A stretch of 64,000 nt of DNA from Desulfobacterales bacterium (GCA_049687935.1 JBAVJU010000199.1:7727-71726), one strand, 5' to 3'. Shown: positions 3,681-39,754, numbered from the stretch's first letter. Numbers and translations are program-made. The notes: a model not told the origin generated them from the sequence alone.

Positions 3681-4007
3681 ATGGCTGAAGGTATGCGGGA
3701 AATAGAAGACGGAAATTTCGAAAGTGAGGTATTGCAGTCGGATATGCCGGTGTTGGTGGATTTCTGGGCGCCGTGGTGCGGCCCTTGCAAAGCGATCGCG
3801 CCCGTCGTCGAAGAGCTTTCCAAGAGTTTCGGGGACCAGATAAAATTCATGAAATGCAATGTCGACAACAGCCCCATCACGCCGGGAAAATATGGTATCA
3901 AGGCCATTCCGACCCTTATCCTCTTCAAGGGTGGTGACGTGGTCGACCAGATAACCGGCATGGTTGCCAAGTCAAAACTCGAAGATGTGATCAAAAAGGC
4001 CCTTTAG
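3681..4007 (+). CDS. trxA: Thioredoxin
   Basis: VLVDFWAPWCGPCK active site. The product is 108 aa when started at the ATG at 3681. Confidence 0.93.
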   Translation: MAEGMREIEDGNFESEVLQSDMPVLVDFWAPWCGPCKAIAPVVEELSKSFGDQIKFMKCNVDNSPITPGKYGIKAIPTLILFKGGDVVDQITGMVAKSKLEDVIKKAL

Positions 4008-10205: not shown

Positions 10206-10627
10206 CTATCGCAGTTCGAGTGTCTCGGATTGACAGCCGGCCGCTGAAGCGTGGGCAGCGGGCCTATCCTTCACATCCTCAAAACAGATCACCGTGTTGA
10301 CCCTATCCGGATTATGAAAAGGTATTTTTTGATTTCCGATACAGAAACGGACACTATTTCGAAAGATAAAGAAAATAAAAAAAATAGCGAGGGAACATGC
10401 TTGAGCGTGCTCAACATGCGATCCCGCAGACCTGACATGCCTTTGTTCGCGCCCTTTACGTGATTGGCGCGGAAAGTGCGGCAATGGGCCGTTTATAGAC
10501 CCAAACAACCTAACAAACCCGATAGACGAGTTCAAGGAAAATAGATACCTCCGAGTTCAGGCCCGGTTCACCCCCCTTCCCCCCGGGCAGGGACTTCAAG
10601 ATGTGAAAGATGAACAGATGTTGCGAT

Positions 10628-18669: not shown

Positions 18670-19146
18670 TCAGGACGATTCTTGCCCTGACTGGTTGAAC
18701 ATTTCCAGTCGTTTTTGGTGCCGGTCACCGTCGAAGCCGGTGTTCAGCCAGGCATCGACCGTTTCAAGGGCCATGGTTTCACCCAGCATCCGGCCACCGA
18801 GCACGAGGATATTGGCGTCGTTGTGCTGCCGGCTCAAACGGGCTGAAAATGGATCCGAGCAAAGCGCTGCCCGAACATTCCGGAACCTGTTGGCCACCAT
18901 CGACATGCCGATACCGGTGCCGCACAAAAGGATGCCGCGTTCATACAGGCCTTTCGAAATTTGAGAGGCCACCCGCATGGCGAATTCGGGATAGTCGACC
19001 GAGCTCTGGCTGAAAGTTCCGACGTCCTCGACCGGATGCCCTTCATTCACCAGGAAAGACTTTATCTTTTCTTTCAGAGGATATGCAGCGTGATCGCACC
19101 CGATGATGATAGCGGTGTGTGGAGGCTCCAATGGTCTTTTTTCCAT
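18670..19146 (-). CDS. rpiB: Ribose-5-phosphate isomerase B
   Basis: IIIGCDHAAYPLKEKI...GILLCGTGIGMSMVANR. I prefer the start at the ATG at 19146. Confidence 0.9.
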   Translation of the reverse strand: MEKRPLEPPHTAIIIGCDHAAYPLKEKIKSFLVNEGHPVEDVGTFSQSSVDYPEFAMRVASQISKGLYERGILLCGTGIGMSMVANRFRNVRAALCSDPFSARLSRQHNDANILVLGGRMLGETMALETVDAWLNTGFDGDRHQKRLEMFNQSGQESS

Positions 19147-19333
19147 GATCTTCTCCAAGCAATGGTTGCTTTCCGAAGCTGGGGCTGCGGCTGTTTTAAA
19201 ACAATAAAAACTATAAAAAATAACCAATTCATCGCATTACCGCAAGAAAAAAAATTGCCCTCCTGACGGGGGGCATGGAAAGGTTACCGGTCGAATGAGT
19301 GGTGGAATGTGGTGCGGCGACGATACCATCGCC

Positions 19334-20578
19334 TCAATTGTGGTTGTACGCTTTTAGCAGCAGGCAGCCGTTTGTGCCACCAAAGCCGAAGGAATTGGTC
19401 AGGGCATAGGTTATCGGTTGTCGGCGGGTGACGTTGGGCACGTAATCCAGGTCGCACTCCACATCCTGGTTTTCGTAGTTGATGGTCGGCGGAATGATCC
19501 CGTGACGGATCGCGAGAGCACAGAAAACCGTCTCGATGCCGCCGGCGCCGCCGAGCAAGTGCCCGGTCATCGACTTGGTCGAACTGATAGGGATCGAATG
19601 GGCCTTGTCTTTGAAAACCGATTTGATGGCGCGGGTCTCATAAAGATCGTTCAATGGGGTCGATGTTCCGTGGGCGTTGATATAGTCGACCAGGTCGTAA
19701 GAGACCCCGGCATCGTCCAACGCCGCCTGCATGCAGCGCACGGCACCGTCTCCATCGGGTGAGGGTGAGGTCATGTGGTAACCGTCACCGCTCATGCCGT
19801 AACCGACGATCTCGGCATAAATCTTCGCCCCTCTTTCCAGGGCGTGGTCGAGCGATTCGATGATCAGAATTCCGCTTCCTTCACCGACAACAAAACCGTC
19901 TCGATCCCGTTCAAAAGGACGGGAGGCTTTTTGCGGTTCATCGTTACGGGTCGAAAGGGCCTTCATGGCGTTGAAGCCGGCGATGCAGCTCTCGGTGACC
20001 ACGGCTTCGACCCCTCCGGTGATCATGGCATCGGCCGCACCATCCTGGATAATCTTGAAAGAGTCACCAACGGCATGCGCACCGGCGGCACAAGCAGTTG
20101 CAATGGATGCATTCGGCCCCCTGGCGCCGAAATAAATCGATATCATGCCGGGGGCCATATTGCCGATCATCATCGGGATGAAAAAGGGAGAAACGCGTTT
20201 GGGGCCGCGAGTTTTCACCGAAAAAATAGTCCGCTCCATGACCTGCAGGCCGCCCAGGCCGCAGCCGGTGATCACCCCCACGCGGTGTCCGTTGGAACTG
20301 TTGATTTTCAAGCCGGAGTCTTCGATTGCCATACGGGAGGCGGCGATCGCATACGCGATAAAAAGCTCGGTTCGGTTGACCTCCTTTGCGAAGAGCCAGT
20401 CTTCATTGCGAAAGCCCTTTACTTCACCGGCAATCTTGGTCTGGTAGTTGGAGGTATTGAACCGTGTAATTTCGCCGATGCCAGACTTTCCAGCACAGAG
20501 CGCCGGCCAGGTTTCATCGACACCGATACCCAGCGGTGTCACCAGTCCGACGCCGGTAATGACGACCCGTTTCTTCAA
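19334..20578 (-). CDS. fabF: Beta-ketoacyl-ACP synthase II
   Basis: KKRVVITGVGLVTPLG, with active-site regions ATACAAG and HGTSTPLND. I prefer the TTG start at 20578, which follows GGAGG. The ATG of the track ORF would overlap acpP. Confidence 0.93.
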   Translation of the reverse strand: MKKRVVITGVGLVTPLGIGVDETWPALCAGKSGIGEITRFNTSNYQTKIAGEVKGFRNEDWLFAKEVNRTELFIAYAIAASRMAIEDSGLKINSSNGHRVGVITGCGLGGLQVMERTIFSVKTRGPKRVSPFFIPMMIGNMAPGMISIYFGARGPNASIATACAAGAHAVGDSFKIIQDGAADAMITGGVEAVVTESCIAGFNAMKALSTRNDEPQKASRPFERDRDGFVVGEGSGILIIESLDHALERGAKIYAEIVGYGMSGDGYHMTSPSPDGDGAVRCMQAALDDAGVSYDLVDYINAHGTSTPLNDLYETRAIKSVFKDKAHSIPISSTKSMTGHLLGGAGGIETVFCALAIRHGIIPPTINYENQDVECDLDYVPNVTRRQPITYALTNSFGFGGTNGCLLLKAYNHN

Positions 20579-20600
20579 AGAGGGCCTCCTTCTGACGACC

Positions 20601-20831
20601 TCAGGATTGCGCCTTGACGAAGTTGATGGCATCCTGAACGGTCTGGATTTTTTCGGCATCTTCATCGGAAATGTCGGTGTCGAATTCTTCTTCCATCGAC
20701 ATGATCAATTCGACCAGGTCGAGAGAATCGGCGCCCAGATCGTCAACGAACGAGGCTTCCGGTACGACTTCCGACAGATCCACACCCAGTTTTTCGGCAA
20801 TGATTTTTTTGACTTTATCTTCGACAGACAT
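20601..20831 (-). CDS. acpP: Acyl carrier protein
   Basis: [14 protein letters not shown] phosphopantetheine attachment site. Confidence 0.95.
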
Positions 20832-23901: not shown

Positions 23902-25329
23902 ATGAAACCTCAACCCAAAAACCAGATCGTCACCCGCTTTCCTCCCAGTCCGACCGGCTATCTTCACGTCGGCGGTGCCCGCACGGCACTGTTCAACTGG
24001 CTCTACGCCCGTCAAACCGGGGGACGATTCGTGCTGCGGATTGAGGATACGGATACCAAGCGGTCGACCCAGGCCAGCACGGATGCCATCTTCGAGGCTC
24101 TTGATTGGCTGGCCCTCGATTGGGACGACGGACCCTACTATCAGTCGCAGCGCTTCGATATCTACCGGGAATTTATTGAGCGGCTCGTCGACTCCGGCCA
24201 CGCCTATTACTGCACCTGCTCGGCCGAACGGCTCGAGGCCATGCGCCGTGACGCCATGGCGGTCGGCGGCAAACCAAAATACGACGGTTCCTGCCGGGAC
24301 AAAGGCCTTAAAAAGACTGCCGACGCCGTGGTGCGCTTCAGGGCGCCGCTGGTCGGTATGACGGTGGTGGCGGATGTTGTCAAGGGAAACATCGTTTTCC
24401 AGAACGCCGAACTGGACGATTTTATCATCGCCCGCAGCGACGGCACCCCCACTTACAATTTCGTGGTCGTGGTGGACGACATCACGATGGGCATCAACAC
24501 GATCATCCGCGGGGACGATCACGTCATGAACACCCCCAAGCAGATCCTGCTGTACCGGGCCCTGGACAGCTCTCTGCCGGTATTCGCCCACGTTCCCATG
24601 GTCCTGGGACCGGACCGCACCCGCCTGAGCAAGCGTCACGGGGCCATGTCGGTCACCGCCTACCGCGACATGGGCTACCTGCCGGACGCCTTTATCAATT
24701 ACCTCGCGCGGCTGGGGTGGTCTTACGGCGACCAGGAATTTTTCTCCCGGACAGAACTGATCGAAAAGTTTTCCCTCGAAAACATCGGTCGCTCGGCCGG
24801 TATTTTTGATCTGGAAAAGCTCTTGGCGCTCAATGCCGCTCACATCCAGGCCGCCCGGCCGCAGGATCTCGTGGCGCCCCTGAAACCGTTCTTCAAACCA
24901 TACGGCTTCGATATCGGGGAAGGGCCTTTTATCGAAAGTGCCATCCGCACCCTGCAGCCACGGAGCAAGACTCTCGCGGACATGGCCCGTGACGCTCTCT
25001 TCTATCTGCAGGACACGGTCGAGTTCGAAGAGGCGGCCGCGCGCAAGTTTTTGAAAGCGGAAGCCCGAGAGCCCCTGGAGCTGCTGATGGCAGAATTGAG
25101 AAAGCTGCCGGAGTTCACCGAACCCGGGCTGGAAGATGCCTTCAAAGCCGTCATGGGAAAAACCGGGCTCAAACTGGGCAAGATTGCCCAGCCCGTGCGC
25201 GTGGCTTTAACCGGCCGCACGGCCAGTCCGGGTATTTTCGAGATCACAGAGATTATCGGCAAAGACAGGGTGCTGTCGCGACTTCAGGCTGCGGTAGACT
25301 ACATAAAAGGACAGGCAAAAATAGGTTGA
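23902..25329 (+). CDS. gltX: Glutamate--tRNA ligase
   Basis: RFPPSPTGYLHVGGARTALFN (HIGH) and LSKRHG (KMSKS). Confidence 0.95.
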   Translation: MKPQPKNQIVTRFPPSPTGYLHVGGARTALFNWLYARQTGGRFVLRIEDTDTKRSTQASTDAIFEALDWLALDWDDGPYYQSQRFDIYREFIERLVDSGHAYYCTCSAERLEAMRRDAMAVGGKPKYDGSCRDKGLKKTADAVVRFRAPLVGMTVVADVVKGNIVFQNAELDDFIIARSDGTPTYNFVVVVDDITMGINTIIRGDDHVMNTPKQILLYRALDSSLPVFAHVPMVLGPDRTRLSKRHGAMSVTAYRDMGYLPDAFINYLARLGWSYGDQEFFSRTELIEKFSLENIGRSAGIFDLEKLLALNAAHIQAARPQDLVAPLKPFFKPYGFDIGEGPFIESAIRTLQPRSKTLADMARDALFYLQDTVEFEEAAARKFLKAEAREPLELLMAELRKLPEFTEPGLEDAFKAVMGKTGLKLGKIAQPVRVALTGRTASPGIFEITEIIGKDRVLSRLQAAVDYIKGQAKIG

Positions 25330-25369
25330 CTTGAAAAGTCAATTTTTGTAATAAAAATAGAAATTCTGC

Positions 25370-25443
25370 TGAGGGATCGTCTAGCGGCAGGACGACGGGT
25401 TCTGGCCCCGTTAACCTAGGTTCGAATCCTAGTCCCTCAGCCA
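25370..25443 (+). tRNA. tRNA-Gln (anticodon CTG at 25402-25404), CCA encoded
   Basis: I folded the cloverleaf by hand: TGAGGGA/TC/GTC-TAGCGGCAG-GAC/G/ACGGG-TTCTGGC-CCCGT/TAAC/CTAGG-TTCGAAT-CCTAG/TCCCTCA-G-CCA. It has U1:A72 and G73, as in E. coli tRNA-Gln. Confidence 0.9.
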
Positions 25444-26304: not shown

Positions 26305-26700
26305 TTAACTTCTTTTGCCCGCTTCATCGCTAATAACCGCATCGGCCTCAATTTCGACCAGCCACTTCGGTTCGATGAAGCCTGCCACTTGCACGATGGT
26401 GCTGGCGGGCCGGATTTCCTTGAAGTACACCCCCTCGTACGGGCTGCCACTGGATACAAGTTGACGCTTCATTTTTTCGCCTATTAAAAATGGGCTGCGC
26501 CCTTCATTCAGTTCCCGCCAAAAATTCGCCGACGAACGGGTGCTGCCTTCGTCAATAAAAACCGCAATTAAATTGGCATCTATATTGCATATCTTCCAAG
26601 AATTTAAAGATATTAGGTTCCCGTTTGCGGGAGAACCGGCTTGCTTTTCAGCTTGCGAAACCGAATCCTTGATGCATCCAAAATGAAATTTAAGCATCAA
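26305..26700 (-). CDS. RidA/YjgF-like protein, possibly degenerate
   Basis: Only the C-terminal third resembles the RidA family (VYFKEIRPASTIVQVAGFIEPKWLVEIEADAV). The N-terminal part overlaps a sigma54-type promoter and the start of the next gene on the opposite strand. Confidence 0.4.
   Translation of the reverse strand: MMLKFHFGCIKDSVSQAEKQAGSPANGNLISLNSWKICNIDANLIAVFIDEGSTRSSANFWRELNEGRSPFLIGEKMKRQLVSSGSPYEGVYFKEIRPASTIVQVAGFIEPKWLVEIEADAVISDEAGKRS
26574..26589 (+). promoter_or_regulatory. Sigma54-type -24/-12 promoter (TGGCAT-N5-TTGCA)
   Basis: TGGCATCTATATTGCA has exact GG-N10-GC spacing. It lies 94 nt upstream of the ATG at 26683. Confidence 0.55.
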
Positions 26701-28089
26701 AATTACTTAATCAGCATTGTTGACGACGAAGCGCTTTACTTTGTGGAAATCAATTCGCGTGGCGAAAGTAATGCCGTTGACCGTATCGCTCTCGAAAAGT
26801 TTTTTATCAATGCCCCCCCGGCAGACATTATTCCTGCGTCCATAAGAGATCGAAAGAATACACTCCTCATTGTACCGGACTATTGGCTCGGGAATTCATC
26901 CTACAAGTTTCAATCCCGCACGAAATCACTGGCGGATGCATTTGTCGCCAGAAAGTTGCACGAGCAATTTCCCGATCAACCGGAAATCAAGTATTTTTTT
27001 GACGGCACTTTTTACCAGCGAGAACAGGCCGACAAGTGGGTATACGCTTATTTTTTGCAGGATCCTCAATTTTTTAAATTATATCCTCAACTGGCTCAAA
27101 TTAATCTGCAGCCGCATCGCATCACCTGCCCCGCTTTAATCTGGCAGCAGAAAATAAGACAGGAAATCCCTGACTTTGACAACGGCGGGAAAGGGTTTGT
27201 GCAGCTACTGCCGAAGATCGGTCTTTTGTATTTCTTCTTTGAAGGGAACTTTCTCTTTTCACGCAGAATTCCTTTAGCCGGTGCGCCGTCGCAGTCTTCC
27301 GACAATTATGATGCCATTGCTTATGAGCTCAATCAGTCGCTTTATCTCTTTTCACAAAAAGCCAAGACCGAAATAGATAAATTGTACCTTGTGTCCCATG
27401 AAGAGGAAAGCGGGCATGCATTATCCGAGGTGCTCGGCCGGGAAGTCCATGATTTGAACTATATCATCAACAATTCGAATACCCTGCAAAGTTCGACCGC
27501 AGCTGCGGGAGCAATGGGGTTTCTGAGTCCAAGCGACATCTTGCCCGGCAAAAACTTTCTGTCTCTCTGTCACCGGGTGTTGAAGAAAGAGTTGGAATGG
27601 AAGCCGGTTCAATTCGGCGGGATGGCCGTCGGACTAATCCTCTTGTTTTTGCTGGGGCTTGAAGCGACGGTGCTCCACAAATGGTCGCAGCAGATTCAAC
27701 TGCCGAGGTCAAACGACAGCTTATCGGCTGAAGAAAGTCATGAAATTCAGCAATACAATGAGGCGCTCGATGCTATCCTGAGCGAATTGGGAAGACGCTC
27801 GCCTCAGGAACTTCTGCGTAAAATAGCCAAGTCATTGCCGCCGAATGTTCGCATACAGGAAATGGTTTTGGAGACGGAAGACAACCCTGGCGTTAATCTA
27901 AAGGGTGTTATTCGGGCGGATGATCCAGAACAGTTCAAAGCATGTCTTTCTACCTTGATTGCCAATGTTAACGCAAATATTCAGGGCCGCCGGGCAATGA
28001 CGGTGTCGGATATTGATTTCGAGGTGAATCAGAACCAGCCGGGCCAAGGTGTGCAGGATTATTTTATCAATTTTCGACTGGATTTATAA
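26683..28089 (+). CDS. Pilus assembly protein, PilM-PilN fusion-like (MshI/GspL-like topology)
   Basis: A cytoplasmic region of about 320 aa is followed by one TM helix (GGMAVGLILLFLLGLEATVL) and a periplasmic domain of about 130 aa. It is the first gene of a run ending in a secretin. The assignment rests on architecture and context, not on a motif match. Confidence 0.65.
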   Translation: MKFKHQNYLISIVDDEALYFVEINSRGESNAVDRIALEKFFINAPPADIIPASIRDRKNTLLIVPDYWLGNSSYKFQSRTKSLADAFVARKLHEQFPDQPEIKYFFDGTFYQREQADKWVYAYFLQDPQFFKLYPQLAQINLQPHRITCPALIWQQKIRQEIPDFDNGGKGFVQLLPKIGLLYFFFEGNFLFSRRIPLAGAPSQSSDNYDAIAYELNQSLYLFSQKAKTEIDKLYLVSHEEESGHALSEVLGREVHDLNYIINNSNTLQSSTAAAGAMGFLSPSDILPGKNFLSLCHRVLKKELEWKPVQFGGMAVGLILLFLLGLEATVLHKWSQQIQLPRSNDSLSAEESHEIQQYNEALDAILSELGRRSPQELLRKIAKSLPPNVRIQEMVLETEDNPGVNLKGVIRADDPEQFKACLSTLIANVNANIQGRRAMTVSDIDFEVNQNQPGQGVQDYFINFRLDL

Positions 28090-28610
28090 TGCGAGGTAAG
28101 TTCAAAAATCGGTGGATCATGGTCGGTCTTGTCTGGGCCTGCGTTTTCATGATTCACTTTTGGAATATCGAAAAGATTGATCAGATCCGAGAACTTCGCG
28201 TGCAGAGGGAAATTTTTCTGAGGGATCAACAGTTCTGGAACAATAACGCCCAAAATATTTCACAAATATTGCAACAGTATTCTTCTTTTACCCAGCACGT
28301 TGAATCTTTAAAATTAGGCCTTCTCCAACTGGAAAACAATTTAAAGGCCCGTGCTCTGGGTCTGGGTCTCAAAGAAGTAAAATTTATCCGTCAAACGGAA
28401 ACAGCCGCTGAGGGAACAGTGCCGGCAAAGCTGGTTTTTATCGGCACCTTCAAGGATGCCAGCCAATGGCTGGATGGGATTCAAAAAGACCTTCCCTGCG
28501 TTTGGATCCAAAACATCAAGGTATCACTGGAGCCGCTCGCGGAGCAGGCCAAGTTCCAGGTATCCATCAATTACCGCTATACCTTATCGTTCGCTGAAAG
28601 TGCCGCTTAG
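28089..28610 (+). CDS. PilO/MshJ/GspM-like pilus assembly protein
   Basis: N-terminal TM helix (WIMVGLVWACVFMIHFW), a coiled-coil segment and a small C-terminal domain. Its start codon overlaps the upstream stop (TAATG). Confidence 0.55.
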   Translation: MRGKFKNRWIMVGLVWACVFMIHFWNIEKIDQIRELRVQREIFLRDQQFWNNNAQNISQILQQYSSFTQHVESLKLGLLQLENNLKARALGLGLKEVKFIRQTETAAEGTVPAKLVFIGTFKDASQWLDGIQKDLPCVWIQNIKVSLEPLAEQAKFQVSINYRYTLSFAESAA

Positions 28611-28615
28611 TTGAA

Positions 28616-29209
28616 ATGAATATTCGGTATCGATTATTCAATATCTCCCATTTAAAGATATCAGGCAGTCGCCCAAGATTGGTATTCGGCTGTTGGTTGC
28701 TGGCAGCCTTGCTGCTGGCGGGGCATAACGGGTCGGAGTTGGCGACCCTGTTGAGCATGCCCGTTTCGGGACAGTCGGCGCAGGTTAAGCTGGCAAGTGA
28801 AAAATGGCGGCAGCTGCAAGATAAAATGTCGCAAACCGTCAAGGAAATGGCGGACAAGGTTGATCTGGATCTGGCGTTCACACAATTTTCTGCTCATTTT
28901 GAGCACCAAAAAGCGAATGATTCAGACTCGGAGGTTGCGCAAGCGCCCAGATTAGAAGCGCAAAGCATGCAGCTCCCGAAATTGTCCGGAATCCTCCATT
29001 GTTTGGATATCAACGGCAATGTAGATGCCCTGGCGGTCATTGAAGGACGAAGATTCCAGGAAAAAGACACGGTGCGCGAATTTCAAATCCAAAAGATTGA
29101 AGAGAAGGGGGTTGTTTTGACAAAAGGTGGTAAAAGATGGTTTCTCAAGACCCCCGAAGTTTCATATTCTTACAATCACGAACCCAACGCCCAAGGTAGC
29201 GGACAGTAA
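28616..29209 (+). CDS. PilP/MshK/GspC-HR-like protein
   Basis: N-terminal hydrophobic segment. The C-terminus LPKLSGILHCLDINGNVDALAVIEGRRFQEKDTVREFQIQKIEEKGVVLTKGGKRWFL resembles the PilP/GspC secretin-contact beta domain. Confidence 0.45.
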   Translation: MNIRYRLFNISHLKISGSRPRLVFGCWLLAALLLAGHNGSELATLLSMPVSGQSAQVKLASEKWRQLQDKMSQTVKEMADKVDLDLAFTQFSAHFEHQKANDSDSEVAQAPRLEAQSMQLPKLSGILHCLDINGNVDALAVIEGRRFQEKDTVREFQIQKIEEKGVVLTKGGKRWFLKTPEVSYSYNHEPNAQGSGQ

Positions 29210-29305
29210 CCCCCTATTTTGGGGTAAAAGCTAAATTCCGGTCAAAAAGATAATACCAAAAGTCGGAAGGATTGCGCAGACAATCGTAGCGGTCGTGAGG
29301 AGCCT

Positions 29306-30814
29306 ATGCATTACCTGCTGGAAAACATAAATAGAAGATGTCTGATCACTGTCGCCGTGATTATTGGATGCCTTGTCAACGGTTGTGCGACCTATGAGCC
29401 TCAACCGGTGACCCTGAAGGAGTTAAATGAGATCCAACCGAAAGAATTGCTGCAGAAAGAAAAGTTCATTAAACCGCCGGGACCGCCACCGTTCGCTGAA
29501 AAGATGGAACCGGTTGCCAAGGATTTGGTGAAAGAGACGCGGCTTTATTCATTGCTATTTGAAAATGCGCCCTTGGGGACCATTCTGAATGCGATCGTGG
29601 CGGATACGGATTATAACCTATCGATTGAATCGGGAATCGATCTGTCCAAACCGGTAACGGTGCGCCTGAATAACGCCACGCTGCGGGAAGCATTGGATAT
29701 GATTATCGTCAAAGGGTCAGGGTATGCATGGGAAACCGTTGACGGGTCGCTGGAAGTCAAAAGATTTGAAGAAAGAATCTATGATTTGGACTACATGGAT
29801 ATAGGCGGTCAAACCGACATCGACGTCGGCGGGGACATGCTGTCGACCAGTGTGGAAGCGGCCGGCGTGGCCGGTAAATTTCAAGTCAAGGCCCAACGCA
29901 GCGCTGAGAAGACCGATGTCTGGACCGGGGTCGAAGAGTCTTTGAAAGCGCTCAAATCACCGGAAGGTATACTGCGAATCAACCGCAATGCTGGCATCAT
30001 TTACATGGCGGACACTCCCACGCGGATAAAAACCATGGTCAATTTCCTGGATTCCCTGGCCGAAGCATTGCACCGACAGGTTTTCATCGAGGCGAAAATC
30101 ATGGAGGTTAAACTCAATGACACCAATAAGTACGGCATCGATTGGACCAATCTTGAGGTCTTGTTCAAATCCCACGCGGGTTATATGCCGGATTATTTTG
30201 ATCTCTTCCTAAACGGCGGCAGCACCATTGCCCTGGCGGATCAATCCGCTTTCAGTGCGGTGATCGATTTTTTGAGAACCCAGGGTGAAGTCTCGGTATT
30301 ATCCAATCCGCATCTGACGGTCATGAACGGCCAGTCGGCCGTGTTGACGGTGGGGGAGCAGTTTCCCTTCGGCGATATCGACGGCGCGGATCAGAATCTG
30401 GAGTACGGCACGATTACCTATCGGTCCTCCATCAAGCGTGTTGTTCTGGGGCTTCAACTCGGTTTGACGCCGCAGATATCCAAGGACGGCATCGTGTCCC
30501 TGCTGATCGTACCAACCATCACCCGCATCAAAGATGAAATCAAGGTGGATATCCCTCTGACGGCGACGATCCGGCAGTCCATTACCAACCCCGTGATCGA
30601 TCTTCAGGAGTTGGCCACGACGGTCCGGGTTAGAGAAGGGCGATCAGTGGTTCTGGCCGGGCTGATCAGTCAGATAAAGAATCTCGACCAAGAAGGTCTG
30701 CCATGGTTCGACAGCTTGCCCTTCGCCAAATACTTTTTTAGCCGAATCAAAGAGTCTTATGAAAACAGTGAATTGGTGATCTTCCTCACCCCCTACATAA
30801 AAAATGTCATGTAA
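29306..30814 (+). CDS. Secretin (type II/IV secretion system family; lipoprotein, MshL-like)
   Basis: Lipobox (IIGCLVNGC). C-terminal secretin signature VLSNPHLTVMNGQSAVLTVGEQ...RSVVLAGLI...LVIFLTP. Confidence 0.85.
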   Translation: MHYLLENINRRCLITVAVIIGCLVNGCATYEPQPVTLKELNEIQPKELLQKEKFIKPPGPPPFAEKMEPVAKDLVKETRLYSLLFENAPLGTILNAIVADTDYNLSIESGIDLSKPVTVRLNNATLREALDMIIVKGSGYAWETVDGSLEVKRFEERIYDLDYMDIGGQTDIDVGGDMLSTSVEAAGVAGKFQVKAQRSAEKTDVWTGVEESLKALKSPEGILRINRNAGIIYMADTPTRIKTMVNFLDSLAEALHRQVFIEAKIMEVKLNDTNKYGIDWTNLEVLFKSHAGYMPDYFDLFLNGGSTIALADQSAFSAVIDFLRTQGEVSVLSNPHLTVMNGQSAVLTVGEQFPFGDIDGADQNLEYGTITYRSSIKRVVLGLQLGLTPQISKDGIVSLLIVPTITRIKDEIKVDIPLTATIRQSITNPVIDLQELATTVRVREGRSVVLAGLISQIKNLDQEGLPWFDSLPFAKYFFSRIKESYENSELVIFLTPYIKNVM

Positions 30815-31001
30815 TCGATGTGAAAATGCCGCCGGCAACTTCTCTCTTCACGGAATTCAAAACACATCCCCAAGGCAGCTGACAATTTGCGTCATTTTCT
30901 TGACTGCGGTATGACCGTGGCCTTTCTCTGGAACGCGTTTTTTATGATAACCTATAGAAAATAATCATATTTTAATCAATTCGGGCTGATGCGACTATCA
31001 T

Positions 31002-31017
31002 TGGCATTAAATTTGCT
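31002..31017 (+). promoter_or_regulatory. Sigma54-type -24/-12 promoter (TGGCAT-N5-TTGCT) upstream of the major pilin gene
   Basis: TGGCATTAAATTTGCT has correct GG/GC spacing and lies 58 nt upstream of the ATG at 31075. Confidence 0.6.
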
Positions 31018-31074
31018 AAAAATGTCGTAATTTTATGGGTACATTTCGTAAATATAGCTGCAAAGGATGAAAAA

Positions 31075-31659
31075 ATGCTGAAAATTAGAAATGTTAAAAA
31101 CTCCCAGGCTGGTTTCACTCTGGTGGAGATTGCCATCGTGATGGTTATTATCGGCCTCCTCATCGGTGGTATTCTCAAAGCACAGGGCATGATTCAAAAT
31201 GCAAAAGTAAAGCGCGTCGTCAAACAAGCGGATGAATTAAGAGCCGCGGTGATGGGGTTTTATGATAAATATGGGGTGTATCCCGGGGACGAGAATCAAG
31301 CCGCCGTTCCGCCGGGGGCTGACGGTGAAGGCGACGGCGATGGATTGATCGAGACGTCCAACAATGAAACCTTTGAGGTCTACAGGGATTTGGTGCGATC
31401 CGAGCTGATCGCCGGTGATTACAACGGCACCTCTGAACTTCCGAGTCATGCCTTTGGGGGCACGGTACGTCTTCAGTGGGTTGATCCGCCGGGGGCAGGG
31501 ACGTTCAATCACTATTTCATGTACACCAATATACCCGCCGAGGTGTGTCAGGAGATCGATCAGAAATTCGATAACGGTACCTGGAATACAGGCTCGATCG
31601 TCGGCAGTGTGGCTTATAACGCAGGAACAACGGTACCCATTCTCTATATTCTTTTTTAA
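31075..31659 (+). CDS. Prepilin-type N-terminal cleavage/methylation domain protein (major pilin/pseudopilin candidate)
   Basis: The leader MLKIRNVKNSQAG|FTLVEIAIVMVIIGLLIGG has G-1, F+1 and E+5. The region after the helix is GspG-like (KQADELRAAVMGFYDKYGVYPGD). There is an acidic DGEGDGDG loop and a single Cys. Confidence 0.85.
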   Translation: MLKIRNVKNSQAGFTLVEIAIVMVIIGLLIGGILKAQGMIQNAKVKRVVKQADELRAAVMGFYDKYGVYPGDENQAAVPPGADGEGDGDGLIETSNNETFEVYRDLVRSELIAGDYNGTSELPSHAFGGTVRLQWVDPPGAGTFNHYFMYTNIPAEVCQEIDQKFDNGTWNTGSIVGSVAYNAGTTVPILYILF

Positions 31660-31675
31660 CGGTGCTTTCAAATGA

Positions 31676-31703
31676 CGGCCCGCCTTTGGCGGGTCCTTCT
31701 TTT
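31676..31703 (+). terminator. Hairpin plus T-rich tract after the major pilin gene (terminator/attenuator)
   Basis: GGCCCGCC-ttt-GGCGGGTCC followed by TTCTTTT, 17 nt after the stop. Confidence 0.45.
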
Positions 31704-31723
31704 AGCACACCGACTCTTCTGAA

Positions 31724-32620
31724 TTGAACACGAGAGAAAAAATACCCCAAAGCCGGTTGAGGTCCGCCTTCGTCCTGTTCGCGCAACAGCACGGGTTTTC
31801 GTTGATCGAAATTGCCATTGTCATGGTCATTATCGGATTGCTGGCCGGCGGCGGGATATCTTTGATGGGTGCGCTCACCCAACGCAAGGCGCGCAACGAG
31901 ACCATCGATTACCTGAAACAGGCCGAAACCGCCTTGATCAGCTTCGCCGGCATAAACGGCAGGCTTCCCTGGGCCGATACCAGCGGAAACGGCAATGAAA
32001 ATAGTGGTGCGTCTTCCGGAAACTTACCCTATCAAACCCTTAAATTGATTCCCACCGATCCCAACAAACGTGTCCTTAAGTATGCGTTGAACAGCAACCT
32101 GGGCACCGATCGAACAACCAGCTGCACCGCCCTGCGCGCGGGGCTTTTGGGTGGGCCCGCCGTCGTCGATGCCGACGGCGCCGCCTCCTCTTTTCAGACG
32201 GCCGCTATTCTTATCAGCGCCGGTCCCGCAGATGCCGATGGTGACGGAAACGTCTTCGACCGCATTGGCACCGGCACCCATCAGGGTGACAACACCGACG
32301 GGTCCCCTAATTTTTTACGATACCCACCGATTGACGGCTTTGATGATCTGGTCGTCTACTTAGGCGAGCATCAATTATACGCAGAAATCTGCGAGTTTCT
32401 TTCGCTGGCGGTCAACAATAACTCCGGCGGGACCGTCTATGTCCATAATCGCACGCAGGGCAGCGATTTGGGGACTCTCGCCAACGGCGGATTCGGCACT
32501 TACACGATCCTGTCCGGTACTCAGATTGAAATCCGAAACGGTTCGGGTGGCAACGTCCCATCCACTCCGCCGACCCCGCTCGCACTCGCCGGTCGCGGCT
32601 TTACCATAACCCTTCCTTGA
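31724..32620 (+). CDS. Large prepilin-like protein (298 aa) with Gly/Asp-rich C-terminal region
   Basis: ...FAQQHG|FSLIEIAIVMVIIGLLAGG class III signal. There is no in-frame ATG upstream of the cleavage site, leaving TTG candidates at 31724 and 31757. Confidence 0.7.
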   Translation: MNTREKIPQSRLRSAFVLFAQQHGFSLIEIAIVMVIIGLLAGGGISLMGALTQRKARNETIDYLKQAETALISFAGINGRLPWADTSGNGNENSGASSGNLPYQTLKLIPTDPNKRVLKYALNSNLGTDRTTSCTALRAGLLGGPAVVDADGAASSFQTAAILISAGPADADGDGNVFDRIGTGTHQGDNTDGSPNFLRYPPIDGFDDLVVYLGEHQLYAEICEFLSLAVNNNSGGTVYVHNRTQGSDLGTLANGGFGTYTILSGTQIEIRNGSGGNVPSTPPTPLALAGRGFTITLP

Positions 32621-32629
32621 AATCCCAAT

Positions 32630-33847
32630 CTAGTACGCCTTGCCCAGCTGGCTGAAAACATCATAAAGCGGCAGAAGGATCGAAAGAATGATCAGACCGA
32701 ACACACCTCCGAGGAGGATGATGGTCAGCGGTTCAATGCTGCTGACCATGGCCTGGACCGTTCTTTTGACTTCACTGTCATAAAAATCTCCCAGACGCGT
32801 GAACGTATCATCCAGGGTACCGGTGGTTTCTCCATTTTTGATCCCGCCGACCAGGAGCAGTGGAAAACCGCCCGTTTTTTCAAAACTCTCCGCAATCGTG
32901 CGGCCGAGTTGGATATCATTATAGGCCGCTTGCAAACGGGACTCCAGGTACTTGTTGCCGAGCACGTTATCGGCCAGGATTTCAAAAATAGCGTTGATCG
33001 ACATGCCGGCGGTGTACATGGTGGCAAAATAGTGGCATAGACGAGCCAGGGCGATGTTTTGAGCGACTTGGCCTATCAGAGGCACTTGCAGTAAATATTT
33101 TTGTATGAAAATCCCGCCCTTGGGACTGCGCTGCAGCAGGAAGAAAAGTGCGGCAATCGCAGCGACGCCAGCGATTAAGGCGACCCAATAGCCTCTAATA
33201 AAATTGCTCATCGTCAAAACGGCTTGGGTGGCGCCCGGAAGGACGACCCCCATTTCTTTCAGGAGCACGGCCATTTGAGGCAGGACGTACCCGACCCAGA
33301 CGCCGATGACAACGCCGAGAGCCACGAGCACAAAGGACGGATAAATAGCCGCTCTTTTGATTGTCGAGCGGATATCTTCTTTCCATTCATGAAAATTAGC
33401 CAAGTCTTTCAAACACTTGGGCACGACACCGGTCTGCTCGCCCATATGGATGATGCCCAGATCAAGCTTGCCGAAAACCTTCGGGAAGCGGGATATGGAT
33501 TCATGCAGGGTCTTGCCGCTTTCGATGGAGAGCCGGATTTCACTGAGCGCCTTTTTAAGAGTCCTGGAGGGCAGTAGCTTGGAATTTTCCTCCAGGGCCG
33601 AGACGATGGGAAGTCCCATGTCCAGTGTCTGTGAGAGCCGCCGGTACAATTCAATCCGAAGCCGTGGTTTGACTCTAAGACCGCTGAAAATATTGCCTAA
33701 TGGGCTGTCCTTGAGCGAATTGGTTGCAATCAGCGTCAGGCCCTCCTGGGCTATCCGCAGTTCCGCATCTTTTTCACCGAGTGCGATAACTTTCCCGCGC
33801 CGAACTCTACCGGCATCATCAATGGCCTTATAACTATAGTTAGGCAT
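32630..33847 (-). CDS. Type II secretion system F family platform protein (PilC/MshG/GspF)
   Basis: 405 aa with a duplicated T2SSF domain and three TM regions. Its start overlaps the ATPase stop by 8 nt. Confidence 0.9.
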   Translation of the reverse strand: MPNYSYKAIDDAGRVRRGKVIALGEKDAELRIAQEGLTLIATNSLKDSPLGNIFSGLRVKPRLRIELYRRLSQTLDMGLPIVSALEENSKLLPSRTLKKALSEIRLSIESGKTLHESISRFPKVFGKLDLGIIHMGEQTGVVPKCLKDLANFHEWKEDIRSTIKRAAIYPSFVLVALGVVIGVWVGYVLPQMAVLLKEMGVVLPGATQAVLTMSNFIRGYWVALIAGVAAIAALFFLLQRSPKGGIFIQKYLLQVPLIGQVAQNIALARLCHYFATMYTAGMSINAIFEILADNVLGNKYLESRLQAAYNDIQLGRTIAESFEKTGGFPLLLVGGIKNGETTGTLDDTFTRLGDFYDSEVKRTVQAMVSSIEPLTIILLGGVFGLIILSILLPLYDVFSQLGKAY

Positions 33848-35489
33848 AGGCGACCACGCGCTGGATTTCCTCTACCGAGGTGATCTGCTGGGCGACTTTT
33901 TTCAGGGCCTGTTTAAACATCAGACTGGTTCCCGCTTGAACGGCAATTTCCTGTATTTTGCTGTGAAGTGCACCGGCAGAGATCAATTCTTCCATGGCAC
34001 GATCCACTTCGAGAACCTCAAAAATTCCGGTGCGGCCGTTGAACCCGGTTTGATCACAACTCGGGCACCCCACGGCATGGGGAATTTCGCCAGGCGGTTC
34101 GAGGTCATGGCGCCGAAAGAGATCTTTTTCCTTCGGCGCGGCGGTTTTCATGGTCCTGCAGTGCGGGCAGATCTTGCGCACCAGGCGTTGGGCCACCACC
34201 ATGACGAGTGAAGATGCCAGGATACTGGTATTAATACCCAGATCGAGCATGCGGTTAATGGCCGAGGCGGCATCATTGGTATGCAGGGTGGACAAAACCA
34301 GGTGGCCCGTAATGGAAGCTCTCAGGGCTAGTTCCGCGGTCTCCAGATCCCGGATTTCGCCGACGAGGATGACATCGGGGTCCTGCCGCATCGCCGATCG
34401 CAAGGCGTTGCCGAAGGTCAGGCCGGCCTTGGGATTGACGGCCGTCTGCCGGACGGTCGGGATGACATGTTCGATGGGATCTTCAATGGTCATGACGTTG
34501 ATATTGGGGTTGTTGATTTTCATCAACGCCGAGTAAAGTGTCGTGGTTTTGCCGGATCCGGTGGGACCGGTGGACAGGATCAGACCGTAGGGGCGCTTCA
34601 GGTTCTGCAGAAACCTGTCCAGGTCGTCCTTCTCAAAACCGTGCCGGGAAAGATCCCCCACGACATCGGTATACTTCAGAAGCCGCAAAACCACCGTTTC
34701 CCCTAGATGCGTCGGGAAAGTTGATGCTCTCAGATTGATTTCACCGGCGCTTCCCTGGTATTTGAAACGGCCGTCATGGGGAATGTTGGTATTGGAGATA
34801 TCGATATCCGCCATAATTTTGAAGCGGGTGGACAGGCTTTGGTGAAAGCTTTTGGGGAAAATATGTTTTTGTTGCAGCACCCCGTCGATCCGATAATAGA
34901 TTCTGACCAGATTGTTATCGGGCTCGATATGGATATCGCTGGCCCTGAGCACATTTCCCTTTTCGATCAACATGTTGGCGAGCCTGACGATCTGATCATC
35001 GGCAGCCTCTCCTGCGCCCGAAGGTGTGAGCGTCAGCTTTTCGATCTCGACGTCAATGGTGCGGGCGCGCTTGTAATGCAGTTCCACGGCATTGGCAATC
35101 CACTCCTTGGAGGCCAGATATGTTGCCACCCGGCACCCGGTCATACGGCCGAGTTCGTCCTTGGTGATCACATCAAAAGGGTTGGCGGTGGCGATCTTCA
35201 GGGTGTCATCTTCCCGGGCAAAAGGAAACACATTGTGTTTACTGACAAATTCTGCCGGAATCTTATCAACCAAGGCGTGATCGATCATAACCGAGGATGT
35301 ATCCAATATTTCGGCACCGCTTTGAACGGCGATGGCCATTTGGAGTTCGTCATCGGTTATCCAGTCGAGGCGGATCAGAACATCACCGAGCATAGCCCCG
35401 GTTTTTTTGGACTCCATCAATGCCATCTCCAACTGGCCCTGGTCGATGAAACCCATTTGAATCAATATATCGCCAATGCGTTTTTTCAT
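33840..35489 (-). CDS. GspE/PilB/MshE-family assembly ATPase with MshEN-like N-terminal domain
   Basis: Walker A GPTGSGKTTT, Asp/His boxes, and the tetracysteine motif CPHC...CPSC. The N-terminus is RIGDILIQMGFIDQGQLEMAL / MLGDVLIRLDWITDDELQMAIAVQ. Confidence 0.92.
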   Translation of the reverse strand: MKKRIGDILIQMGFIDQGQLEMALMESKKTGAMLGDVLIRLDWITDDELQMAIAVQSGAEILDTSSVMIDHALVDKIPAEFVSKHNVFPFAREDDTLKIATANPFDVITKDELGRMTGCRVATYLASKEWIANAVELHYKRARTIDVEIEKLTLTPSGAGEAADDQIVRLANMLIEKGNVLRASDIHIEPDNNLVRIYYRIDGVLQQKHIFPKSFHQSLSTRFKIMADIDISNTNIPHDGRFKYQGSAGEINLRASTFPTHLGETVVLRLLKYTDVVGDLSRHGFEKDDLDRFLQNLKRPYGLILSTGPTGSGKTTTLYSALMKINNPNINVMTIEDPIEHVIPTVRQTAVNPKAGLTFGNALRSAMRQDPDVILVGEIRDLETAELALRASITGHLVLSTLHTNDAASAINRMLDLGINTSILASSLVMVVAQRLVRKICPHCRTMKTAAPKEKDLFRRHDLEPPGEIPHAVGCPSCDQTGFNGRTGIFEVLEVDRAMEELISAGALHSKIQEIAVQAGTSLMFKQALKKVAQQITSVEEIQRVVAYA

Positions 35490-36328
35490 TCTATCGACCT
35501 TTTACTCTCACTTGCGCTGTTGCCCTCTGTCTGATTCCGGTTTGCGCCTAAATAAGCGTGCAGGGACCTGATTCGCGTTTCAATGTTTTTTTTATCATGC
35601 GGTGGCAACGTGTTATTTTGCTGCAAAAATTTACCGTAATAGTGAATGGCATCATCATATCGTTGTAATTTGTCGGAAAGAACCGCCAGGTTGAAGATCA
35701 GATTATTATGACTGGTATTGAGTTTCTCTGCTTTTTTATAGCAAATTCGAGCTTCTTCCAACTTGCCGAGCCGACTCAGGGCAGCGGCACGATGAAAATA
35801 AATTCCAAAGCGTGGTTCCTCGCATTGATTGGCAGCCGAATCCAATAAGTGAATCGCTTCTGCGGGTCTCCCCAAACCGATTTCAGTGATTGCGAGGTTT
35901 ACCAAAATATCGGGGTTTCGGTGATCGCTCGTCTCCAGCCGCTTTAGGAGGGGATAAGCATCCGAATAGGCTGCCAATTGGATATAGGCTGAACTGAGAT
36001 TGAACAGGGCGTCACGATGATCGGGGTTTACTCTGATGACTTGTTTATACATTTGAATGGCTTGATCTAACTTGTCCCCGCGGTGGTAGCGCAGCGCCTT
36101 TTGATAAAAAATATCTTCTTCATGAGATGGTAAGGGCTTGGCTGTTTCATTTCGCGCAATTGCTTGCACGGCTCTGTTGGCAGCATTCGGGATGTTTTCT
36201 TGGGCGGACAGAGACCCCGAGAAACACCACGCACCAAGGATAAATGTGCCTGATAGGACCAACCTTTCACCGATGCACGCCATTTTTTTTCGGATCGCTT
36301 CATTCAACAAGCTCATATTTATTTCCAA
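35486..36328 (-). CDS. TPR repeat protein (MshN/PilF-like)
   Basis: N-terminal hydrophobic segment followed by at least five TPR-like repeats. Its stop overlaps the ATPase start (ATGA). Confidence 0.7.
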   Translation of the reverse strand: MEINMSLLNEAIRKKMACIGERLVLSGTFILGAWCFSGSLSAQENIPNAANRAVQAIARNETAKPLPSHEEDIFYQKALRYHRGDKLDQAIQMYKQVIRVNPDHRDALFNLSSAYIQLAAYSDAYPLLKRLETSDHRNPDILVNLAITEIGLGRPAEAIHLLDSAANQCEEPRFGIYFHRAAALSRLGKLEEARICYKKAEKLNTSHNNLIFNLAVLSDKLQRYDDAIHYYGKFLQQNNTLPPHDKKNIETRIRSLHAYLGANRNQTEGNSASESKRSIE

Positions 36329-36372
36329 TGCAATTTAAGGGCTCACTCAAAAATATCATCACATTTTCAATT

Positions 36373-36999
36373 TCAATCATATGGGGGAACCCACCACGCC
36401 GTTTCCGCAAACTCAATTCTGACCTCTAATTGTTTTTCCTTGTTTCGAACATCCTTTATCTTTCCCAGGACCTCCTGCCGATCGACAATCCCCGGAAAGT
36501 TGAAGCTCATGGTAATGAGATCATCGCATCGCAACGTATGATCCGTTTTTGCAGCCGCTTCAAAGACGCAGCAGCAGCCGCGTTTACTGATATTTTTGAT
36601 GACCCCGGCTTTCGTTTCGTTATTAATGTCGATTTTAGCGGAAATAAAGCAGCTGATTCTTTTATGGGATCGGGATTCTTGCTTCATCACCGATGCGGGG
36701 TATTCCAATAAGAGCAATTTTAGGGGGCTATTCGTTATTTCCATTAACTTGGACGTGAATTTTAAGATATTCCCTTTAAACGAAAATTTAATTTTAATCC
36801 GGTCGCTCTGAAGCAGCTTCTTTTCAATGCTATTAAAATTTGAAGGAGGGGTAATGACGATATATTGACTCCCCTTTTTACCGACAAAGGTGCTCTTCAG
36901 CGCATCGTCAAGACCATCGACGGCAAGGCTCAATTCGGTTCCAGTTTCGAGATCGAGGTTATTTTTTTTATCGATCCCTTCTAAGGTATTAATTGACAT
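36373..36999 (-). CDS. PilZ domain protein with YcgR-like N-terminal (PilZN) region
   Basis: RSHKR (RxxxR) at residues 110-114 and NISKRG (D/NxSxxG) at residues 136-141. It is the first gene of the ATPase operon. Confidence 0.75.
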   Translation of the reverse strand: MSINTLEGIDKKNNLDLETGTELSLAVDGLDDALKSTFVGKKGSQYIVITPPSNFNSIEKKLLQSDRIKIKFSFKGNILKFTSKLMEITNSPLKLLLLEYPASVMKQESRSHKRISCFISAKIDINNETKAGVIKNISKRGCCCVFEAAAKTDHTLRCDDLITMSFNFPGIVDRQEVLGKIKDVRNKEKQLEVRIEFAETAWWVPPYD

Positions 37000-37124
37000 A
37001 ACGATTCCTTATTTGGGTCACCTGCGGAGGCAACCGATCAGAAGAAAAACGATCTTTTTCATGTTTGGTTCATCATAAAAGGGCGCACGGCACCATTACA
37101 TGTTGCGGCGAATCTCAAGACACA

Positions 37125-37140
37125 TGCAAAATAAGCGCCA
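37125..37140 (-). promoter_or_regulatory. Sigma54-type -24/-12 promoter (TGGCGC-N5-TTGCA on minus strand)
   Basis: The reverse complement of TGCAAAATAAGCGCCA is TGGCGCTTATTTTGCA. It lies about 125 nt upstream of the PilZ-gene start at 36999. Confidence 0.5.
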
Positions 37141-37305
37141 ACTTTCAAAAATAATTAGATAAATTGCAGAAAATCACTTGCCTGATGGGTCATATCTCAA
37201 CAAGCGAACGGCATGGGGATCGATTCAGAAGAGATTTCAATGATGGGAATTTGTCATTTGTGGAGACGAGAATGGTGGGAAAGTGCGGTTGTGTCTATTA
37301 AGGGC

Positions 37306-37857
37306 TCACTTCTTCCCCAGCTTCAAGCCTTTCAGCACGGCGAATTTCGGGTTGATGATTTTTCTCTCGCAGCCGCAATCGCCCTGGTTCAGGTCGGCGC
37401 CGCACTGCGGGCAGAGGCCTTTGCACTCCGGTCGACAGAGGGTTTTCATCGGCACGGCCATCAGCACCTCCTCCTGGACGGCGTCGCGCAGGTCGATCTC
37501 CTCCCCGTGAAAAAGGATCAGGCCGATCTCCTCGGCGCCGAGCTCGATTTCTGCGTGCTGCGTCGGATCGGCCGCCTCCGGCTGCTCCCGGCTGAAGGAC
37601 AGGATAAAGTCGGCCGCAAGGGGGGTTTCGTAGTCGGCCAGGCAGCGGCTGCATAAGAGGCGAACCCGGGTCTCGAAACGACCGGTCGCCTCGAACATTT
37701 GACCGATTCGGCGGATGCGGAGATCGATGGTCAATGGCGTCAGAAAAACACATTCTCCGCCGCGGCTGATCTCGAGCAGTGACGGGAACGATTCGGCGCT
37801 TTCCTCGAATGTCAGGCCTATGTCGCCGTCGCCGATGTCATCTACGTTTACGCGCAT
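37306..37857 (-). CDS. yceD: YceD/DUF177 family protein
   Basis: It has two Cys pairs, CSRCL...CRPECKGLCPQCG, typical of DUF177. Confidence 0.8.
   Translation of the reverse strand: MRVNVDDIGDGDIGLTFEESAESFPSLLEISRGGECVFLTPLTIDLRIRRIGQMFEATGRFETRVRLLCSRCLADYETPLAADFILSFSREQPEAADPTQHAEIELGAEEIGLILFHGEEIDLRDAVQEEVLMAVPMKTLCRPECKGLCPQCGADLNQGDCGCERKIINPKFAVLKGLKLGKK

Positions 37858-37981: not shown

Positions 37982-39754
<1,773 letters not shown>

Follow-up and report, generated by a model that had tools for sequence, protein, structure and literature searches.

We examined a stretch of 64,000 nucleotides (nt) from a Desulfobacterales bacterium (GCA_049687935.1 JBAVJU010000199.1:7727-71726; the window, below, means this whole stretch) that carries a pilus locus whose ATPase type and gene content identify it, by sequence, as an MSHA-like type IV pilus cluster of an uncultured member of that order. 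We hold with considerable confidence that this locus is expressed as three transcription units, each from a σ54-dependent promoter, and that the activator of these promoters is encoded outside the window. This arrangement, with an enhancer-binding protein (EBP) acting in trans, had been proposed in an initial annotation of the same DNA, and it is supported by the rank, the position and the conservation of three promoter-like elements and by the lack of a local activator. The three elements are as follows.

26574–26589, plus strand: P_mshI, a −24/−12 element (TGGCATCTATATTGCA) 94 nt before the ATG at 26683; predicted promoter of the assembly/secretin operon.
31002–31017, plus strand: P_pilA, a −24/−12 element (TGGCATTAAATTTGCT) 58 nt before the ATG at 31075; predicted promoter of the major pilin operon.
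37125–37140, minus strand: P_pilZ, a −24/−12 element (TGGCGCTTATTTTGCA, reverse complement) 125 nt before the ATG at 36999; predicted promoter of the PilZ-TPR-ATPase-platform operon.

The sequences, coordinates, strands and distances to the start codon given for these elements in the initial annotation are exact. Each has precise GG-N10-GC spacing (in P_mshI, GG at 26575–26576 and GC at 26587–26588) within near-consensus flanks (a TGGCAC-N5-TTGCW-like context), and each stands in the correct orientation ahead of the first gene of its unit. Transcription from these elements would be expected to start near 26600, 31028 and 37114, giving leaders of approximately 83, 47 and 115 nt for P_mshI, P_pilA and P_pilZ, respectively. 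When both strands of the window were scored with an approximate σ54 position weight matrix, P_pilA (15.7 bits), P_mshI (15.0 bits) and P_pilZ (12.5 bits) ranked first, second and third, ahead of a match of 12.2 bits at position 3774 that lies within an open reading frame (ORF); the absolute values of these scores are only indicative because the matrix only approximates the published promoter compilation.

The number of such sites is no evidence for their function, because matches are no more frequent than chance would provide. The core TGGC-N7-TTGC, described in the initial annotation as nine bases expected approximately 0.5 times in 64 kb, in fact specifies eight bases; dinucleotide shuffles of the window yield 3.37 matches on average, and the window contains six (the other three at 5434, 6817 and 30057, all on the plus strand), a count reached in 11 of 100 shuffles. 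Likewise, the window holds 3 matrix matches of at least 12.4 bits, compared with 3.7 per 64 kb on both strands in first-order Markov simulations of the same composition, and intragenic matches of 11–12 bits occur elsewhere within it. Significance based on counts was therefore rejected. The placement of the three sites, however, is non-random. The best three matches of the matrix scan are all operon-leading, and all three lie on the coding strand inside 966 nt of operon-leading intergenic DNA (44% G+C) in which only 0.045 matches would be expected; from the background rates, the probability of finding one site in every one of these intergenic regions was calculated as approximately 3e-6. The earlier assertion that the hits are unlikely to be coincidental thus fails as far as their number is concerned, and stands on the strength of their placement and of their conservation in related genomes.

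Scanning with the ATPase, and keeping one genome per species, gave 30 related loci in which gene order is conserved. All but one come from metagenome-assembled genomes (MAGs) of Desulfobacterales, Desulfosarcina, Desulfatitalea or Desulfatibacillum, or from MAGs labelled delta proteobacterium, Deltaproteobacteria or Pseudomonadota; in these 29 loci the matched ATPase segment is 62–100% identical to that of the window (62–96% for full-length matches), the closest MAGs being JBDNAO01 and JBATHN01, each with an MshE 96% identical. The exception is a Bacillota MAG (L024; ATPase 36% identical). The elements recur at orthologous positions and distances in up to eight other genomes each, as listed here by locus.

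P_pilA: in L026, L002, L003, L007, L027, L005 and L021, 48–64 nt before the ATG of genes for pilins 70–92% identical to that of the window.
P_mshI: in L003, L027 and L021 and in five Desulfatibacillum-like loci (L012, L017, L020, L028 and L029), 58–107 nt before the ATG; in the latter five the site is kept with a product at the mshI position that is only about 30% identical.
P_pilZ: in L002, L004, L006, L007, L025 and L030, 120–127 nt before the ATG.

A site of the P_pilA type is absent before pilA in more distant clades. Distant clades also lack the PilZ gene, yet a σ54-type site again precedes their ATPase operon: approximately 100 nt before mshE in L012, L016, L017, L020, L028 and L029, and before an mshM(AAA_22)-mshN(TPR)-mshE-mshG operon in L013, the only one of these loci in which the intervening ORFs were identified. 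For L009, L011, L014, L015, L018, L019 and L023 the site was placed by its position, 1.7–2.9 kb upstream of the TPR gene. Counted by clade, σ54-type sites stand before the ATPase operon in three, before mshI in two and before pilA in one.

Across 38 orthologous sites the GG, TT and GC are invariant and the spacer is variable. Alignments within the window's own clade give 14 of 16 invariant positions for P_pilA, 14 of 16 for P_mshI and 12 of 16 for P_pilZ, compared with 20%, 24% and 22%, respectively, of the other intergenic columns. These islands of conservation constitute, in our view, the strongest non-experimental evidence available for functional σ54 promoters, and because the elements are kept in related genomes we conclude that all three are very probably real. 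The comparison does not involve near-identical strains, as intergenic identity is low and protein identity ranges from 30% to 96%. Elsewhere in the 446 kb of related loci, other matrix matches of at least 11.5 bits are scattered, several of them within pilus genes; by a rough count some 15 of these reach 12.4 bits, with approximately 26 expected when the chance rate is scaled to 446 kb. The unraised counts would agree with three functionless matches to a short degenerate pattern that arose by chance, but the conservation effectively refutes this idea, and we assign it next to no probability.

Several observations, in addition to the merely indicative nature of the matrix scores, weigh against reading the locus as three σ54-dependent units under an activator encoded elsewhere. 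The score of P_pilZ, which has G for A at −22, is barely above that of the best intragenic chance match. The sites are missing from three distant loci (L008, L010 and L022) and, at pilA and mshI, from the Desulfatitalea-like clade, so the arrangement is lineage-specific. Nothing is conserved upstream of about −65 at P_pilZ, and we could not demonstrate an upstream activator site that the three promoters share. The promoters and their start sites are predictions from sequence that come from only 64 kb of this genome. Finally, in the Desulfatibacillum-like loci the mshI site comes close to a perfect palindrome, TGGCA-N7-TGCCA, in which position −11 is C (perfect in L012 and L017, near-perfect in L028 and L029), and could there serve a dimeric regulator; the L017 element scores on both strands.

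The palindrome raises the possibility that the elements are operators of another DNA-binding protein, for example a dimeric one that recognizes dyads of this kind, and that transcription comes from unrecognised promoters of the σ70 type. The σ54 consensus is itself partly dyad-symmetric, and the failure of a simple consensus scan to find any σ70 promoter-like site in the three operon-leading intergenic regions is weak evidence, because σ70 promoters of Desulfobacterota are poorly described. However, the elements of the window's clade are not palindromic (TGGCAT...TTGCA/T), and the invariant positions are those of the σ54 consensus, namely GG at −25/−24 and TTGC at −15 to −12, together with a C at −23 in 32 of 37 distinct sites. 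Moreover, the element never changes its orientation relative to the gene that follows, and distances of 48–127 nt to the start codon fit promoters. We therefore regard operators as an improbable explanation of the three elements.

The σ54 promoters that we favour would each respond to an activator, and two blocks upstream of them can be placed as follows.

37158–37176, minus strand: TGATTTTCTGCAATTTATC, a conserved element close to P_pilZ (about −62 to −44).
30880–30894, plus strand: palindrome TGACAATTTGCGTCA, followed by further TGAC repeats, approximately 120 nt upstream of P_pilA.

The first of these forms a partial palindrome, which in relatives reads TGAT-N4-TGCA-N4-ATCA. Upstream of the −24 element of P_pilZ it is the sole block to be conserved, and it is found, in the window and in all loci, at P_pilZ alone. 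It is a candidate site for a regulator or for an architectural protein; inspection of the block by eye gave no convincing match to the IHF consensus. Because conservation ends at about −65, and because in L006 the end of a kinase gene occupies the DNA farther upstream, a conserved regulator site for P_pilZ, if there is one, must be close to the promoter or within the leader; or else P_pilZ may have an activator that needs no fixed site. The palindrome upstream of P_pilA, which is kept in L026 and L027 only and whose region is missing in L002, L003 and L007, is a weak candidate for an upstream activator site. At P_mshI, a short conserved CGCCAAAAA occurs near −80 within the window's clade.

The search for an activator site shared by the three promoters, by alignment, by half-sites and by k-mers, returned none: enumeration of k-mers over the three promoter classes of the window's clade gave only AT-rich words of low information, and shared TTGACG/CGTCAA half-sites were rejected as a general feature, being convincing only in the Desulfatitalea-like clade. 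There, a dyad TTGAC[AG]-N15-18-[CT]GTCAA lies at about −150/−126 of the mshM promoter in 8 of 8 loci (L013, L014, L015, L018, L019, L023, L009 and L011), approximately 100–125 nt upstream of the σ54 site. It is preceded by a T-run and has variable spacing; in L013 the σ54 site downstream of it was shown to precede mshM. We consider it a likely enhancer for the activator in that clade. In the leader of the PilZ gene, all six aligned relatives share a conserved CTTTTTCTTC[CT]GATCG at approximately 37020–37036 on the minus strand, some 35 nt before the start codon. A riboswitch or other known RNA was rejected for this 115-nt leader, which has no Rfam match even at E<=1.

EBPs that lack a DNA-binding domain, such as FlgR and Rrp2, exist. 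The elements could thus be σ54 sites in units that are not co-regulated, each unit having its own activator, or being activated from solution by an EBP of that kind, and having additional promoters as well. Such separate control would accord with the want of a common upstream motif, with the differences between the conserved blocks (TGATTTTCTGCAATTTATC, TGACAATTTGCGTCA and CGCCAAAAA, at P_pilZ, P_pilA and P_mshI, respectively) and with the independent gain and loss of σ54 sites at pilA, mshI and the ATPase operon across clades. It is compatible with, rather than contrary to, three σ54 promoters under a trans-encoded activator, and the absence of a short degenerate site from a few sequences is weak evidence that none exists. 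In addition, the pili operons of Desulfovibrio vulgaris have been ascribed to a single regulator (PMC4641369). We take separate control to be a serious possibility, albeit one toward which we do not lean.

A more speculative version, which we think unlikely, retains the σ54 promoters and holds that the MSHA-like pilus of Desulfobacterales is a lineage-wide σ54 regulon rewired clade by clade, in which P_pilZ of the window's clade would be controlled from the unusually near −62/−44 site or by an activator devoid of a DNA-binding domain, and not from a canonical distant enhancer. Activation of P_pilZ from close by, or by such an activator, is suggested by the fact that nothing farther upstream is conserved and that some relatives have a kinase gene there.

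That the activator of the three predicted promoters is encoded elsewhere follows from searches of the DNA at hand. None of the GAFTGA, EBP Walker A or RpoN-box motifs was found in the six frames of the window, and Pfam searches of approximately 50 window ORFs revealed no EBP, only metabolic, translation and transport genes and one iron-dependent repressor. No kinase or receiver domain was found in the window, so the earlier statement that neither an EBP nor a kinase is encoded nearby can be extended to the entire 64 kb. No EBP adjoins the pilus genes in any related locus, and an EBP in cis was accordingly rejected on the basis of the six-frame motif scan of the window and the 30 loci together with the Pfam searches of the window ORFs. 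The presence of rpoN in the host genome can be inferred from taxonomy, as its relatives are Desulfobacterales, and the Desulfobacteria exceed every other class in their number of EBP genes, Desulfosarcina ovata, for instance, having 69 (PMC12316311). Given this wealth of EBPs, and the precedent of D. vulgaris, an activator that works in trans on several pilus operons is to be expected and is not odd.

Signalling genes do occur in some of the related loci. A 784-amino-acid (aa) PAS-HisKA-HATPase-REC hybrid kinase is encoded between yceD and P_pilZ in L002 (5175–7529), L006 (5215–7569) and L030 (879–3230), and a homologue of it, approximately 40% identical, is encoded just upstream of mshI in L013, L018 and L019 of the Desulfatitalea-like clade (~18800–20470). 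The window has no gene for this kinase, a candidate for the sensor that feeds the pilus regulon. In the Desulfatibacillum-like locus L020, an HDOD-GGDEF-REC protein is encoded immediately upstream of mshI (18907–20784, minus strand); it recalls MshH, the GGDEF/EAL protein that heads the msh locus of Vibrio, and it too has no counterpart in the window. In L014, a near-perfect σ54 site (TGGCATGTGTTTTGCT; 10347–10362, minus strand; 18.9 of 19.7 possible bits) lies within 4.3 kb of DNA inserted between mshG and the gene for the second pilin.

Searches of Pfam and NCBIfam divide the pilus locus into three units, one for assembly and the secretin, one for the pilins, and one for PilZ, TPR, ATPase and platform proteins; this is a fair reading because the genes inside each unit overlap or are closely spaced. 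The genes and associated features of the locus are as follows.

26683–28089, plus strand: assembly gene 1, at the position of mshI (468 aa); synteny in approximately 20 loci.
28089–28610, plus strand: assembly gene 2, at the position of mshJ (173 aa); synteny, with a faint match to T2SSM_b (E=0.085).
28616–29209, plus strand: assembly gene 3, at the position of mshK (197 aa); synteny, with a weak match to T2SSB.
29306–30814, plus strand: MshL-like secretin, the fourth and last assembly gene (Pfam Secretin, 8e-35).
31075–31659, plus strand: major pilin (194 aa; Pfam N_methyl), with the prepilin N-terminal methylation motif in its translation.
31677–31695, plus strand: terminator-like hairpin directly 3′ of the pilin gene (8-bp stem with 7 G-C pairs, then a T-rich tail).
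31724–32620, plus strand: second prepilin-type protein (298 aa; Pfam N_methyl).
32630–33847, minus strand: platform protein of the MshG/PilC/GspF family (Pfam T2SSF, 1.9e-44).
33840–35489, minus strand: MshE-like extension ATPase with an N-terminal MshEN domain that binds cyclic di-GMP (c-di-GMP) (Pfam T2SSE, 2.6e-119; MshEN, 3.7e-17).
35486–36328, minus strand: TPR protein, at the position of mshN (multiple TPR families).
36373–36999, minus strand: PilZN-PilZ (YcgR-like) c-di-GMP receptor, the first gene of the ATPase operon (Pfam PilZNR, 4.4e-10; PilZ, 3.5e-7).

Despite their synteny, the genes at the mshI, mshJ and mshK positions gave no significant sequence match in Pfam, NCBIfam or the PDB. 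The product of the first of them (26683–28089) gave no match at all in these databases, and its earlier description as PilM-N-like is unconfirmed. We consider the three proteins to be highly divergent members of the alignment complex. The best NCBIfam match of the secretin is TIGR02519 (pilus_MshL), at 198 bits against a cut-off of 250 bits, and a gap of 260 nt separates the secretin gene from the major pilin gene. On the minus strand, transcription would proceed through the genes for the PilZN-PilZ protein, the TPR protein, the MshEN ATPase and the platform protein, in that order. The MshEN domain of the ATPase scores 62.5 bits in Pfam (cut-off 23.1), and the MshE-related c-di-GMP motif of NCBIfam 57.7 bits (cut-off 38). 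The window lacks mshM (AAA_22), which distant relatives have.

The neighbourhood of the locus consists of housekeeping genes. One flank has gltX, tRNA-Gln, a VapB-like ORF and DUF192; the other has yceD, glnS, Memo, nifU and nifS, so that gltX with tRNA-Gln(CTG) and glnS lie on opposite sides of it (window 23902–25443 and 37982–39754). A 147-aa ORF on the plus strand (37213–37656) was rejected as a divergent regulator because it is a shadow ORF of yceD (37306–37857, minus strand), which sets the intergenic region of P_pilZ at 37000–37305. The usual partners of yceD (DUF177), rpmF and plsX, do not come after it, and the pilus locus takes their place. The G+C content of the locus and its immediate flanks (26–32 kb and 36–38 kb) is 0.48–0.50, with higher values in the adjoining 2-kb windows (0.56 and 0.59). 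In the spacer upstream of P_mshI, a 56-aa ORF (26305–26475, minus strand) gave a weak match, short of the cut-off (E=1.9e-4), to RidA/L-PSP in the C-terminal part of that family, and is probably a gene remnant.

According to the model that we favour, σ54 RNA polymerase would form a closed complex on the GG-N10-GC elements, and transcription would begin approximately 12 nt downstream only once an AAA+ EBP hydrolyses ATP. One or more EBPs encoded elsewhere, probably acting downstream of a sensor kinase, would trigger formation of the open complex. With the activator and any sensor kinase outside the 64 kb, transcription of the pilus genes would be coupled to a signal whose sensing is encoded in another part of the genome, and with all three promoters dependent on an ATP-driven activator, production of the pilus would be switched by a specific signal and would not be constitutive. 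The hairpin after the pilin gene may lower read-through into the second pilin gene. The ATPase operon encodes two c-di-GMP receptors, one being the PilZ protein and one the MshEN domain; they imply a second level of regulation, in which c-di-GMP would act post-translationally on the ATPase and on the PilZ protein.

These findings provide a regulatory map, with three promoters and their predicted start sites, for a pilus system in uncultured relatives of sulfate reducers. They leave the principles of σ54-dependent and of pilus regulation unchanged, and the type of gene control that they describe is fairly ordinary. What is new is that σ54 promoters are predicted, with an activator encoded in trans, for an MSHA-like locus of Desulfobacterales. 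Of greater interest are the conserved promoter-proximal element at P_pilZ and the gain and loss of promoters clade by clade; the comparison across clades illustrates how σ54 promoters come and go at single operons of one machine.

Pseudomonas, Myxococcus, Geobacter and commensal Neisseria are the classical cases of σ54 control of the major pilin, and the σ54-dependent pilA promoters require an AAA+ EBP. In the PilS-PilR systems of Pseudomonas aeruginosa, Myxococcus xanthus and Geobacter sulfurreducens, pilS and pilR adjoin pilA. The window resembles these systems in having a −24/−12 element, here predicted from sequence, directly upstream of the major pilin gene. It differs from them in that no genes for a PilS kinase and a PilR EBP adjoin the pilin gene, none for any EBP or kinase being found in the 64 kb, and in that the assembly/secretin and ATPase operons carry σ54 elements as well. 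The MSHA locus of Vibrio cholerae has the order mshHIJKLMNEGF / mshBACDOPQ. Common to it and the window are an ATPase that carries an MshEN domain, a secretin (that of the window matching MshL best, though below the cut-off), a TPR protein of MshN-like kind and a platform protein, and it shares mshM with the Desulfatitalea-like relatives; c-di-GMP control is implied in this likeness as well. Unlike the V. cholerae locus, the window has its genes in three units on two strands, lacks mshM, has a PilZN-PilZ gene at the head of the ATPase operon and only two pilin-like genes, and has no detectable sequence family for its first three assembly proteins. Three msh promoter regions (msh-P1, -P2 and -P3) have been described in V. 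cholerae, with no mention of RpoN (bioRxiv 10.64898/2026.09.27.754871), and the literature that we searched, a limited library, contained no report of σ54 promoters at an msh locus.

The σ54 control of pili is nevertheless less of a novelty than the initial annotation implied, in view of the EBP repertoires of Desulfobacteria (PMC12316311) and of the σ54-controlled pili operons of D. vulgaris (PMC4641369). In Xanthomonas oryzae, a σ54 factor with a regulatory system of its own (RpoN2-PilRX) is reported to govern the transcription of type IV pilus genes (PMC7170775); this is a gammaproteobacterial case with named regulators, and its likeness to the window lies in a σ54 factor acting on pilus genes. 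The σ54 regulon of Geobacter includes pili biogenesis (cited in PMC4641369), and a survey from 2025 found COGs for type II secretion and pili enriched among predicted σ54 targets, mainly in Myxococcia (PMC12316311). In D. vulgaris Hildenborough, whose genome has an unusually large EBP repertoire, three pili operons have predicted σ54 promoters and are assigned to one regulator, DVU2114 (Kazakov et al. 2015, PMC4641369). D. vulgaris is a different organism with a different set of pilus genes, and its regulator is known; it belongs to the same phylum as the host of the window and likewise has several pilus operons with predicted σ54 promoters.

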